Positions 43,586 through 49,376 of a DNA stretch of 64,000 nucleotides are shown piece after piece. The DNA lies in NCBI GenBank assembly GCA_038997165.1, contig JAWBAK010000001.1, positions 436,169 to 500,168 on the forward strand, written 5' to 3'. The DNA is from Candidatus Aenigmatarchaeota archaeon. Lineage in GTDB: Archaea; Aenigmatarchaeota; Aenigmatarchaeia; CG10238-14; SpSt-28. A program made the position numbers and the translations under genes. The first letter of the stretch is position 1; each line of letters opens with the position of its first letter. Under the pieces are notes generated by a model. That model had not been told where the DNA came from and made no database searches. It was given only the letters and a program-made list of their open reading frames with translations.

Positions 43586-45102
43586 ACCAAAATCTATTAA
43601 TTACATTACTTTTGAAATCGTATATAGAAGAAAATGGATTAGTTAAGTATCAAATAGATTCATATAATGATTTTGTGACTAGAAGATTTCCAAAATTAGT
43701 TAGAAGTGTTGGAACAGTTAAGCCAGAAATTCCGGAATTAGGAGATATAAAAATTCATTTTATAGATGCGAGAGTTAATAATTATCCAACATTTGTAGAA
43801 GCTGATGGAGTTGTAAGAGGAGAAAATAATCCATTATTACCATTTGAAGCAAGAATAAGAGGTTTAACTTATTCTACTCCAATGTATTTAAAAGTTATTA
43901 CAGAGGTAGGTGGAATTAAAAGTGATCCAATTGAAGTTTATTTTGGTCAATTACCTGTAATGGTTAAATCGATTATATGTCCGTTATCTAGAATGAGTAG
44001 AGAAGAATTGATTAAAGTAAGAGAAGATCCAGATGATCCTGGGGGATATTTTATAATTAATGGTGTAGAAAGAAATTTAATTTTGATTGAAGAACTTGCA
44101 AATAATAAGCCAATAGTTAGAAAAGTTGATCAAAATAATATAATTGTAAATTGTAGAGTAAATTCAGAAAGAGAAGGATATATTGTTAAACATCTTTTTG
44201 AATTAAAGAAAAACGGAATATTATTAGCTACATTTTCTGCTTTAAGAGATTTTCCATTAGTAATTCTATTTAAGGCATTAGGAATAGAAAGTGATGAAAC
44301 TTTATTAAATTTAATTTCAGAAGATAAAGACGTTCAAGAAGAATTTATTATAAATTTATATGAATATCCTATAACTACTCAAGAAGAAGCTTTAGATAAA
44401 ATTGGAGAATATTTAAAAATTCCTCAAAAAAGATTAAGGAAAGAAAGAGCTGAAATGATTATAGATAAATACTTTCTTCTTCATTTAGGTCAAACTAAAA
44501 AAGATAGAATAAATAAAGCAATATTTTTGGCAAAAATTGTCGAAAGAATGTATAAGGTTGCTCTAGGAAAGGAAAAAGAAGATGATATTGATCATTATGC
44601 AAATAAAAGAGTAAGATTAGCTGGAGAATTATTTGAAATTTTATTTAGAACAATTTTAAAAGGAAAGCAAGGAGTAATAAATAGAATGATATTTAATTAT
44701 CAAAAACTCGCAAAAAGAGGAGGTTTACCTCCAATTCATGCTGCAATAGATGCAAATTTTGTTACTAATATTGTTCAATCTGTTATGGCAGTAGGAACAT
44801 GGATTGGAAATAGAACTGGTACATCTCAAAGATTAGAAAGAACTAATTTCAATAAAACATTAACACATTTAAGAGTTGTTAGCTCTCCACTAAAATCTAC
44901 ACAAGAACATTTTGAAGCTAGAGAGTTGCATCCAACACATTTTGGAAAATTATGCCTAGTAGAAACACCAGAAGGACCAACTATAGGTTTGAGAAAACAT
45001 TTAGCTATTTTTAGTGAAATAACTTTTGGAGTTAGTGATGAAGAAAGAGAAAAAATAAAAAAATTAATTGAAGAAGACATAGAATATAAAGTTGAATTAT
45101 GA
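43582..45102 (+). CDS. rpoB2: RNA polymerase subunit B'' (Rpo2N)
   Basis: QIDSYNDF, DPGGYFIING.E, DDIDHYANKR, ARELHPT, ETPEG. Confidence 0.95.
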   Translation: MNQNLLITLLLKSYIEENGLVKYQIDSYNDFVTRRFPKLVRSVGTVKPEIPELGDIKIHFIDARVNNYPTFVEADGVVRGENNPLLPFEARIRGLTYSTPMYLKVITEVGGIKSDPIEVYFGQLPVMVKSIICPLSRMSREELIKVREDPDDPGGYFIINGVERNLILIEELANNKPIVRKVDQNNIIVNCRVNSEREGYIVKHLFELKKNGILLATFSALRDFPLVILFKALGIESDETLLNLISEDKDVQEEFIINLYEYPITTQEEALDKIGEYLKIPQKRLRKERAEMIIDKYFLLHLGQTKKDRINKAIFLAKIVERMYKVALGKEKEDDIDHYANKRVRLAGELFEILFRTILKGKQGVINRMIFNYQKLAKRGGLPPIHAAIDANFVTNIVQSVMAVGTWIGNRTGTSQRLERTNFNKTLTHLRVVSSPLKSTQEHFEARELHPTHFGKLCLVETPEGPTIGLRKHLAIFSEITFGVSDEEREKIKKLIEEDIEYKVEL

Positions 45103-48100: not shown

Positions 48101-49376
48101 AATTACTCCAGGAAAAACATTTAGAATAAATTTATGCACTACAATTCCATATAATGCAGATTTTGATGGTGATGAAATGAATTTACATGTTCCTCAATCT
48201 ATAGAAGCAATGGCAGAAGCAGAAATACTTATGGGTGTAGAAAAACATATTAGAAGTCCAAGATATGGAGGACCTATAATTGCATTATTGCACGATCAAA
48301 TTTCTGGCCTATTTTTATTAACTTATGGAGAAAATTTAATAGATTATAAAGAAGCTGTTCAATTAATTAGAAGTATTGATTTGAATGTTGAAATTCCAAG
48401 AAAAGAAAAATTAAGTGGAAAGGAAATATTTAGTCTTTTCTTACCTAAAATTTCTCTTGAATTTAAAAGTAATTTAGCTTCATTAAAAGAAGAAGCTGAA
48501 AAAGAAGGAAAAGTAATAATAAAAGATGGAAAATTAATACAGGGAGTAATTGATAAAAAAGCTGTTGGAGAGAATGGAAAATTATTAAATAGAATTTTAT
48601 ATCTTTTTGGTTCAAAATATACAAAACAATTTATTGAAAAAATTTCAAAATTAGGTTTAAATTATTTGTGCATGCGAGGCTTTAGCATTTCTTTAGTTGA
48701 ATATTCATTAGCTGAAAAAGTTAGAGCTGAAATTAGAGAAATTTTAGAAAGAGCAAATAAAAAAACAGAAAGTTTAATAAAAGAATTTAAGGAAGGAAAG
48801 TTAAAAGTATTGATTGGAAGAACCAGAGAAGAAACATTGGAAGAACTAATTAATGGAGTAATAAACGAAACAATAACAAAAATTAATGAAATATTATTAA
48901 GAGAAATTAAAAAAGATAACGAAGTTTTTGTTATGGCTGCAAGTGGTGCGAGAGGTAGTTTTATAAATATATTCCAGGTAAGTGGATTAATAGGTCAAGC
49001 CAAAATTATGGGAAAAAGAATTAGCTTAGGATATTATCAAAGAACATTTCCTCATTTTGAAAGAGGAGATTTAAGATTAGAAGCTAAAGGATTTATTTCT
49101 AATGGATATTATGAAGGATTAAAACCATTAGAAACATTCTTTGATATAATGAATCAGAGAGAAGCACTTATGGATAAAGGAGTAAAAACAAGACAAAGCG
49201 GATATCTAGAAAGAAGATTAATAGGTGCATTAAACGATTTAAGAGTGGAATATGACTTAACAGTTAGAGATGCTAACGATAATATAATTCAATTTATTGC
49301 TTTTGATGATGGAATAGATCCATATAAAATTGAAGGGGGAGATTTAGATGTATATGAAATCGCAAGAAATTTATAA
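45099..49376 (+). CDS. RNA polymerase fused subunit B'-A' (Rpo2C-Rpo1N), junction near 46880-46895
   Basis: B' motifs GDKFASRHGQKG, GGLRLGEME, YAFKLLLQEL; then A' motifs DPRMG, GHFGYIEL, GKRTNFSARSVI, NRQPSLH, NADFDGD, all in one frame. Confidence 0.93.
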   Translation: MKAEKYKVFLDGEFLGYTTKPEKIVEKIRDLRRKGEISYQVNVSILEYKKEVRISTDSGRIRRPLIVAKNIEKLEEILKEGKLSFNELLKNGIIELLDAEEEEITKISLEIKKEEKDKYTHFEIHPAIMLGLHSSLIPFIEHTRGDRINYGARMNGQALGIPTLAYKSRTYSFWHVMLYAQVPLVQTFSYKVFPFDTHPNGNNVVIAVISHPYTMQDAIVLNKSSVERGLFRSYMFRTYEAEEKKFASGQEEIIGIPQPGVKGYRGEEAYKHLDIDGIVPLETRVKEGDVLIGKISPLRFLGRADKFIISLENMRETSVEVRGGEQGIVDRVFITSSSEGNKLVKVVLREEKIPEIGDKFASRHGQKGVVGLMVRHEDMPFTSSGIVPDIIFNPHGIPSRMSLGHLLEILFGKIAALDGKIFDGTAFEGDREKEVIELLKKYGFEESGREEMYDPITGKKYEVKIFIGCIYYLRLHHLVSNKWFARSRGPVTLLTRQPTEGKAKEGGLRLGEMEKDVLLAHGATITLKERFDSDKVLVPVCSKCGLIAMKDYSKNRLYCLYCKDDSEIYEVEMSYAFKLLLQELISMHIYPKIIVNKVLKKVDAIEFKVFTAEDIKKYAVAKISKIDVYDEEGFPIEGGIMDPRMGTVDPGIRCRTCFGNFATCTGHFGYIELAKPVLHPLFIKYIYILLRVFCKSCGKLLTTEEKPKLKELLKSLPSTCPHCKAKQPSITFVRPYTFKIEDKKLNAEEIREFLLKIDKEDVKKIGIKVDPSSFVLSLLLVSPPVVRPSIVLETGERSEDDLTHKLSDIVRVNEKLKEAIELGAPQLVIEDLWEFLQYHVATYFDNELSGIPAARHRSGRVLKGLAQRLETKEGRFRYNLLGKRTNFSARSVISPDPFIDIDEVGVPVEIAKELTVPVVVNEENIEMLRELILNGNNYPGVNYVIRPDGIRIKISDKNKEEIAKLLDVGWIVERHLMNGDIVLFNRQPSLHRMSMMAHRVRITPGKTFRINLCTTIPYNADFDGDEMNLHVPQSIEAMAEAEILMGVEKHIRSPRYGGPIIALLHDQISGLFLLTYGENLIDYKEAVQLIRSIDLNVEIPRKEKLSGKEIFSLFLPKISLEFKSNLASLKEEAEKEGKVIIKDGKLIQGVIDKKAVGENGKLLNRILYLFGSKYTKQFIEKISKLGLNYLCMRGFSISLVEYSLAEKVRAEIREILERANKKTESLIKEFKEGKLKVLIGRTREETLEELINGVINETITKINEILLREIKKDNEVFVMAASGARGSFINIFQVSGLIGQAKIMGKRISLGYYQRTFPHFERGDLRLEAKGFISNGYYEGLKPLETFFDIMNQREALMDKGVKTRQSGYLERRLIGALNDLRVEYDLTVRDANDNIIQFIAFDDGIDPYKIEGGDLDVYEIARNL

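Follow-up and report, generated by a model that had tools for sequence, protein, structure and literature searches.

A fused rpoB'-rpoA' gene for RNA polymerase in a Candidatus Aenigmatarchaeota archaeon and its relatives

Can two catalytic subunits of an archaeal RNA polymerase be encoded, and made, as one chain? The question is raised by a 64,000-nucleotide stretch of contig JAWBAK010000001.1 from a Candidatus Aenigmatarchaeota archaeon, called here the window. At positions 45099..49376 of its forward strand, the list of open reading frames (ORFs) and the translation give a single ATG-start ORF of 1,425 codons, without an internal stop, that runs through both subunit B' and subunit A'. The first-pass annotation, made from the sequence alone, had described a stop-free frame of 1,425 amino acids with no methionine at the junction and almost no linker, and the ORF, its translation and subunit profiles that abut at residue 597 bear this description out. 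The gene is a genuine, inherited, in-frame fusion of rpoB' (Rpo2C) and rpoA' (Rpo1N), and its product is very probably a single polypeptide that does the work of both B' and A'.

The domain content of the fused protein is that of two polymerase subunits placed end to end. Pfam finds Rpb2 domains 4-7 at residues 8-594, followed by Rpb1 domains 1-5 at residues 600-1405. The Rpb2 matches all lie above their cut-offs (PF04566 at residues 8-68, PF04567 at 85-126, PF00562 at 134-504 with an E-value of 4.6e-124, and PF04560 at 506-594), such that Rpb2_7 ends at residue 594 and Rpb1_1 starts at residue 600. The archaeal B' model TIGR03670 (rpoB_arch) aligns to residues 8-597 over profile positions 1-597 of 599, and scores 795.7 bits, narrowly below its cut-off of 811. 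The A' model NF006336 aligns to residues 597-1423 over profile positions 4-875 of 883 and passes its cut-off of 819 with 1055.3 bits, and a second A' model, TIGR02390, falls slightly below its cut-off (1036.4 bits against 1042.55). Since the B' profile ends and the A' profile starts at residue 597, there is essentially zero linker between the two parts. By these Pfam and NCBIfam matches the B' part (residues 1-597, with Rpb2 domains 4-7) occupies 45099..46889 (+), and the A' part (residues 598-1425, with Rpb1 domains 1-4 and the start of domain 5) occupies 46890..49376 (+).

The junction itself lacks the signals that would separate two genes. The translation across it, LLLQELISMHIYPKIIVNKVLKKVDAIEFKVF, is continuous and stop-free, and the underlying DNA (gtt aat aaa gtt tta aaa aaa gtt gat) includes a T4A7 tract at 46891..46901 (+). 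No stop follows residue 597 to release B' as a free-standing polypeptide ending after its clamp zinc ribbon; the frame continues into A'. No ATG, GTG or TTG that could serve as the start codon of A' occurs within residues 588-640 of the fused frame. Between residues 560 and 660 the in-frame candidates lie only at 573, 587, 641 and 645, and the junction is therefore without a start codon.

Both halves retain the sequence elements of working subunits. The HGQKG motif of the B' active-site region is at residue 364 and the catalytic motif NADFDGD is at residue 1019. The B' part ends with a CxxC...CxxC zinc ribbon (residues 541 and 559), and the A' part carries CxxC motifs at residues 654, 694 and 720 that form the zinc motifs of the clamp. 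The zinc-binding Cys and His columns of the clamp are invariant in an alignment of 31 fused sequences, and the catalytic and zinc motifs of the fused protein are all intact. The fused gene is the sole B'/A' locus of its genome, an assembly of 4 contigs that totals 652 kb, with a completeness of 94.5% and a G+C content of about 25%. In DNA of that composition an open frame of 4.3 kb, found again at 54-97% identity in 26 other genomes, is far beyond chance.

A different account of the frame is that the A7 homopolymer was misassembled or misread, and that the true genome holds two genes. The T4A7 run does sit at the join, and one added A would end the B' frame two codons on, at the TGA at 46904 in frame +2; the resulting A8 tract would, however, leave the A' frame without a start codon before residue 641. 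The stretch is present in 17 hot-spring metagenome runs from 8 studies, and contigs of four of these runs (X2, X3, X7 and X8) were aligned to window positions 46500-47300. Three other runs, from three studies, show the same tract, and bridge 46880-46905 with 0 gaps and no indel or stop: X2 in record 3 (46674-47042), X3 in record 11 (46608-47029) and X8 in record 22 (46842-46937). The contigs of X7 stop short of the junction. Comparison with relatives points the same way, and is the stronger argument against an error. The nearest relative, G001, is 97% identical and reads gct cta aag aaa gtt at the site; it lacks the A7 run and keeps the frame, as do all 8 genomes of the clade g1+g3 to which the window belongs and 63 genomes of the phylum. 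The three clean contig crossings and the in-frame relatives, G001 among them without a homopolymer, therefore exclude an assembly error for practical purposes, and it is rejected as an explanation with next to no chance of being right.

One contig each in X3 and X8 joins position 46703 to 46959, skipping 255 nucleotides, with a 32-nucleotide match on either side. These contigs probably come from a diverged relative that matches the conserved flanks, rather than from a deletion.

The fusion is widespread within the order and mixed there with separate genes. The relatives are named Candidatus Aenigmatarchaeota or Aenigmarchaeota in their record titles or by NCBI. In a same-order sample of 41 genomes, including G000, 27 keep a single stop-free frame across query residues 1-1425, 13 have two separate matches and one, which is 81% complete, has no match. 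Inspection of the 40 junctions shows that the 27 fused ones are all in frame and the 13 split ones all out of frame, 10 at +2 and 3 at +1. The fusion as seen in the window, in which Rpb2_7 runs uninterrupted into Rpb1_1 with abutting termini, thus recurs in 26 other genomes of the order, and no curated family exists for it. The first-pass annotation had left room for close relatives with separate genes; the eight genomes of g1+g3, which form a clade with support of 100, all encode the fusion.

A wider sample was searched with the 301 residues that span the join (residues 450-750), and the counts were made by hand. Of the 371 genomes of the phylum, 346 give a match. In 63 of these the frame runs unbroken through the join, in 44 B' and A' share a frame but have 1-2 stops between them, and the other 239 yield separate or partial matches. 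The 63 uninterrupted cases comprise 45 of this order's 118 genomes and 18 genomes from other families. Uninterrupted frames of 1,910-1,941 amino acids, which combine an unsplit B (Rpb2_1-7) with A', occur for example in G042, G045, G047, G051-G053, G060, G171 and G195.

The 44 genomes with in-frame stops include G108, G250, G261, G332 and G348; loci L056-L060 are alike, and the stops may be TAA, TAG or TGA. With one stop, this state would be a single point mutation away from fusion, and it is a possible substrate for stop-codon read-through. When 1-2 stops are read through, the frame reaches 2,291 codons in G228 and 2,283 in G1002, a length which suggests that B, A' and A'' are all in one frame.

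Public protein records agree with the genomes. A search of the public protein collection gave 1,132 proteins that pass E 0.001 among 1,449 candidates, and the 120 best of these all cover 100% of residues 500-700 and carry both Rpb2_7 and Rpb1_1. Within these 120, 21 are 1,910-1,924 amino acids long with added Rpb2_1-3 (for example P0057, P0066 and P0083). Where NCBI gives a name to members of this set, it is "subunit A'", or in two cases "subunit B, partial". One of the 120 is labelled Woesearchaeota and one 'archaeon'.

A fused protein of 1,429 amino acids, P0035, with 62% identity over the junction, is listed by NCBI under Candidatus Woesearchaeota. Its source may be a mislabelled bin, given that 0 of 401 genomes are fused in the phylum of the Woesearchaeota-labelled genome that was sampled.

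Outside the phylum the fusion was not found in the genomes sampled, 736 in all from four other DPANN-type phyla. It is absent from 301 genomes in the phylum of a Micrarchaeota-labelled genome (300 without G404, a genome flagged as unpublished), where 56 junctions are in frame and all have stops, and from the 401 genomes in the phylum of the Woesearchaeota-labelled genome, where 48 are in frame and again all have stops. It is likewise absent from 17 genomes in the phylum of an Undinarchaeales-labelled genome and from 17 in that of an Altiarchaeota-labelled genome. In a set of loci from diverse archaea, 77 of 80 cover the junction, with 3 fused, 19 in frame with a stop and 55 out of frame. The three fused loci are L064 and L072, titled Aenigmatarchaeota, and L070, titled 'uncultured archaeon'.

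Two loci titled Aenigmatarchaeota, L074 and L087, have about 433 and 592 extra nucleotides that separate B' from A', where their relatives have none. The extra sequence could be an inserted ORF or element.

How the fusion arose can be read in part from the split relatives. In these, B' ends with IYPK(I/L)VVxEE and a stop, A' begins with M-K-V-(E/D)-K-I-E-F, and the stop and start overlap, as ATGA or TAATG, or lie a few bases apart, as in the split junctions of G031 (gaagaATGAagg) and G039 (gagTAATGaaa). The old A' methionine is still in frame in five fused genomes: G035 (SGEEMRVKRIEF), G033 (DENLMKVSKLEF), G023, G034 and G040. In the window, K600 (AAA, 46896-46898) appears to occupy the column of the former A' start codon; its spacing from IYPK is that of the G033 methionine, and this placement rests on the alignment. 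The distance from IYPK to IEF is 12 residues in the window against 11 in split G031 when its two termini are summed, so that no linker was inserted and nothing deleted, and a small indel suffices. Such an indel would have abolished the B' stop and brought the B' and A' frames into register to give a joined gene, and in the genus of the window the old ATG would later have become AAA. The T4A7 tract is not conserved among the fused relatives, as in G001 (gct cta aag aaa).

The trees indicate that this happened, or was reversed, more than once. They were built from the B' plus A' protein with the junction residues excluded. An IQ-TREE analysis (LG+G4, quick search) of 40 order-level rows, for which the relatives were chosen by software, needs at least 6 changes between fused and split states, 5 of them forced by branches with a support of at least 95 in the SH-like approximate likelihood ratio test (SH-aLRT). 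Placing the 27 fused rows in one clade costs 952.7 log-likelihood units, and a single origin is rejected by the approximately unbiased (AU) test (p-AU 1.8e-39). FastTree with 60 rows needs 12 changes, 10 of them forced, a number that is not a rate, as 20 of those rows come from other families and were hand-picked by state. The trees do not firmly place g1+g3 with respect to two other genera, g4, which is split, and g2, which is fused. The junctions of fused clades also differ, with DKDLKKV in g1 and g3, NDEGKISKIEF in g2, DEDLGIIDK in f5 and KEDGSGIER in G028, and these sequences fit several origins.

By this phylogenetic evidence there are at least five to six switches between the fused and split states within the order. 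Counts alone do not settle their direction. We infer that repeated gains are favoured over losses, because all 13 split junctions are out of frame and overlapping, which is ancestral-like, and a re-split by nonsense mutation would leave an in-frame stop.

The join was also compared with known structures. An AlphaFold2 model of residues 431-900, made from the alignment of 31 fused sequences, has a mean predicted local distance difference test (pLDDT) score of 67.8 and a predicted template modelling score (pTM) of 0.66, and several segments are below 50. The blocks around the join score 84-90 and are predicted as strand-turn-strand, with the strands at residues 159-166 and 171-179 of the modelled piece. 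By the model and the alignment to 3qqc_A, the junction hairpin at 46863..46925 (+) would consist of the strand IYPKIIVN (residues 589-596), the turn KVLK (597-600) and the strand KVDAIEFKV (601-609). By fold the model matches 3qqc_A best, a structure of archaeal Spt4/5 bound to the RNA polymerase clamp domain (E-value 1.5e-28, TM-score 0.72 normalised to the target, 365 columns). The sequence match to this chain spans the join in one stretch (E-value 3e-103), and IYPKIIVNKVLKKVDAIEF and IRPKLNLSEGGKVIGSIEF pair there with no gap.

In solved natural archaeal polymerases, the B chains match up to residue 163-167 of the piece, a few residues from their C-termini, and the A' chains match from residue 169-170, at their own residues 3-5. 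The chain ends abut, and the termini thus meet in the clamp, such that the natural join is also the join made by crystallographers. The model indicates that the fusion is structurally compatible with the polymerase clamp. The last β-strand of B' and the first of A' are already adjacent there, and a turn of four residues is predicted to link them.

At the level of genes, the polymerase core of the window would consist of three large chains (B'', B'A' and A'') instead of four. The first-pass annotation had proposed such a core with the HGQKG region and NADFDGD on one polypeptide, and the Pfam, NCBIfam and motif evidence agrees that there are three large-subunit genes arranged in this way. The tether would enforce 1:1 synthesis of B' and A' and would spare one step in clamp assembly. 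Its effect is probably near neutral or mildly helpful, any benefit being suggested by this reasoning, and an effect of this kind would explain that the fusion has arisen, or been undone, many times in Aenigmatarchaeota.

It is improbable, though the least improbable of the competing accounts of the product, that the product is cleaved post-translationally, at the join or close to it, and that the working enzyme keeps separate B' and A' chains. The junction is rich in lysine (NKVLKKV), and the free interchange of fused and split states in the phylum indicates that the covalent link is evidently not required. Against cleavage, the join is predicted as a tight, ordered turn of four residues between paired strands rather than an exposed linker, and the differing junctions of the fused clades share no cleavage-like motif. 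The Helicobacter fusion protein, moreover, is described as tethered, as the title of Zakharova 1998, listed among the references of PMC9696931, has it.

A further account, in which the gene is recoded to yield two proteins, is barely plausible. It would involve a -1 frameshift on T_TTA_AAA, in the region 46894-46900, that ends B' at a TGA, or internal initiation of A'. The sequence T TTA AAA is a formal -1 slippery heptamer from which the -1 frame reaches the TGA at 46904; such heptamers nevertheless arise by chance in AT-rich DNA, and a frameshift here would give free B' without free A', and so serve no stoichiometric purpose. The heptamer is also absent from the nearest relatives (G001 gct cta aag aaa, G005 act ctt aga aaa), and frameshifting was rejected on this ground. 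An in-frame methionine at the old A' start is kept in the five fused genomes named above, which would suit internal initiation in those genomes. For the window an internal A' start was rejected, given the lack of a start codon between residues 588 and 640.

A broader proposal, tentative and rather doubtful, is that the B'/A' boundary acts as an evolutionary toggle in Aenigmatarchaeota, and that the tether is adaptive, stabilising the clamp or speeding its assembly in very small, often thermophilic, host-dependent cells. With trimmed, abutting termini and overlapping genes, single small mutations would shift a lineage between an out-of-frame overlap, a shared frame with one stop, and fusion. 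The 44 genomes with in-frame stops may then produce both free and tethered subunits by read-through of the stop codon. If this were true, the assumed rarity of split and fusion characters of the polymerase would be unsafe for deep archaeal phylogeny.

Several points weigh against the preferred reading, in which the gene is an inherited fusion, evolved repeatedly and translated into one lasting chain. None of the 18 runs listed for the stretch is an RNA run, and the synthesis of a single polypeptide that stays intact in the cell is a prediction, as is any advantage of the tether. The run evidence comes from Logan assemblies and not from the reads themselves, and X2 belongs to the study that includes the sample from which the genome may have come. 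The structural model is mediocre overall, and its confidence at the join may reflect polymerase structures that were learned in training. The trees trace a single gene, that of the protein under study, and 20 of the FastTree rows were hand-picked by state.

The fused gene lies in a conserved cluster, all on the forward strand. The first gene is rpoH, for subunit H (81 amino acids, 43340..43585), recognised by the Pfam domain RNA_pol_Rpb5_C (E-value 2.9e-23), and it overlaps the next gene by 4 nucleotides. This next gene, at 43582..45102, is a separate rpoB'' for the N-terminal half of B (506 amino acids), with Pfam domains Rpb2_1, Rpb2_2 and Rpb2_3 and an NF007175 score of 466.6 bits against a cut-off of 355; its stop overlaps the start of the fused gene as ATGA, also by 4 nucleotides. 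After the fused gene, which is single-copy, comes a separate rpoA'' (375 amino acids, 49348..50475), in another frame and with a 29-nucleotide overlap, identified by Pfam Rpb1_5 over profile positions 60-265 of 267 and by TIGR02389 (E-value 3.8e-116). Farther downstream Pfam identifies an L30e/L7Ae-family gene (50459..50719), a NusA-like gene (50716..51117), for which the match to TIGR01952 (nusA_arch) is weak at 47.7 bits against a cut-off of 74.35, and the genes for S12 (51139..51561) and S7 (51558..52154).

A complete archaeal 16S rRNA gene follows at 54064-55542 (+). No Rfam match to 23S rRNA occurs in the remaining 8.4 kb downstream of it, in DNA of 20-30% G+C, and the rRNA genes therefore appear to be unlinked. 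Two tRNA matches, at 39718-39818 (-) with 101 nucleotides and at 55651-55736 (+) with 86, are longer than a standard tRNA and probably contain introns.

The fusion bears on the biology of transcription, on annotation, and on how far the layout of polymerase genes can serve as a phylogenetic character. Its many independent occurrences are natural replicates for the effect of a covalent B-A link on the assembly and stability of the clamp. The fusion is present, unflagged, in public records and, as far as was searched, is not in print; automatic annotation gives the fused proteins no name other than "subunit A'" or "subunit B". In addition, since the fused protein satisfies the A' model but falls narrowly short of the B' cut-off (795.7 against 811), B' can be expected to look absent in some marker-gene or completeness analyses.

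Rearrangements of the large-subunit genes are well known in archaea at other junctions. Da Cunha et al. (2017; PMC5484517) deal only with the A and A'A'' states, and report an A-type subunit in Thaumarchaeota and Korarchaeota and a secondary re-fusion of A' and A'' in Pacearchaeota. As in the window, these are altered architectures of large-subunit genes in archaea, including a DPANN lineage, but the junction lies within subunit A and not between B and A. The authors left Aenigmarchaeota and other DPANN out of their data, and regard split and fusion events as rare and as usable for polarising the archaeal tree. With at least five to six switches in one order, this rarity is not valid at every junction. 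No description of an archaeal B'-A' or B-A' fusion was found in the full-text literature searched, a coverage that leaves aside subscription journals and bioRxiv supplements. Within the literature searched, this is thus the first natural tether of two catalytic subunits described for the archaeal, eukaryote-like RNA polymerase.

The join has been made artificially. The recombinant clamp of Pyrococcus furiosus, rClamp (PDB 3QQC chain A), combines B residues 1053-1115, A' residues 3-318 and A'' residues 334-371 with short Gly/Ala/Ser linkers, according to Martinez-Rucobo et al. (2011; PMC3094117), and it was soluble and folded and bound Spt4/5. Given that rClamp folds and binds its partner, the join is structurally harmless. 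As in the window, C-terminal residues of B are joined directly to A' from residue 3 onward in one chain; unlike the window protein, rClamp as described there is engineered, is limited to the clamp domain, uses linkers, has A'' tied in and is not a working polymerase subunit. The natural junction matches the engineered one and offers a ready design for single-chain archaeal polymerase constructs.

The closest precedents are bacterial. A fusion of the β and β' subunits is also known in Wolbachia, which the first-pass annotation had cited together with Helicobacter. The Wolbachia half of that precedent was not confirmed from a paper, and the genome paper of Wolbachia wBm makes no mention of rpoB or rpoC. 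The Helicobacter half stands, and extends to Wolinella, through the rpoB-rpoC fusion of Zakharova et al. 1998/1999 as cited in PMC1557499 and PMC9696931. There, as in the window, the C-terminus of the second-largest subunit is joined to the N-terminus of the largest, within a conserved operon and from adjacent or overlapping genes, and both halves of the active centre come to lie on one polypeptide. The bacterial protein joins a whole β of about 1,400 amino acids to a whole β', for about 2,900 in total, whereas the window protein joins the C-terminal half of B to the N-terminal two thirds of A and leaves B'' and A'' separate. The bacterial β/β' models, which are about 2,850-2,890 amino acids long, score far below their cut-offs on the window protein (NF007172, PRK09603, 330.2 against 5372 bits; NF011417, PRK14844, 309.2 against 4632), and match its β' core only. 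By these scores the window protein is analogous to the bacterial families and not a member of them. Gupta 2006 also describes one rare event in Helicobacteraceae, in contrast to the at least five to six switches within one order of Aenigmatarchaeota.

The B-A' proteins of about 1,910-1,940 amino acids from other Aenigmatarchaeota families share the junction and the phylum of the window protein, but their B is unsplit. Their core would therefore have two large chains, B-A' and A'', where the window keeps B'' separate, and they are the closest archaeal parallel to the Helicobacter β-β' protein. The fused gene of the window, inherited and repeatedly evolved, is a natural archaeal counterpart of the fused Helicobacter polymerase.

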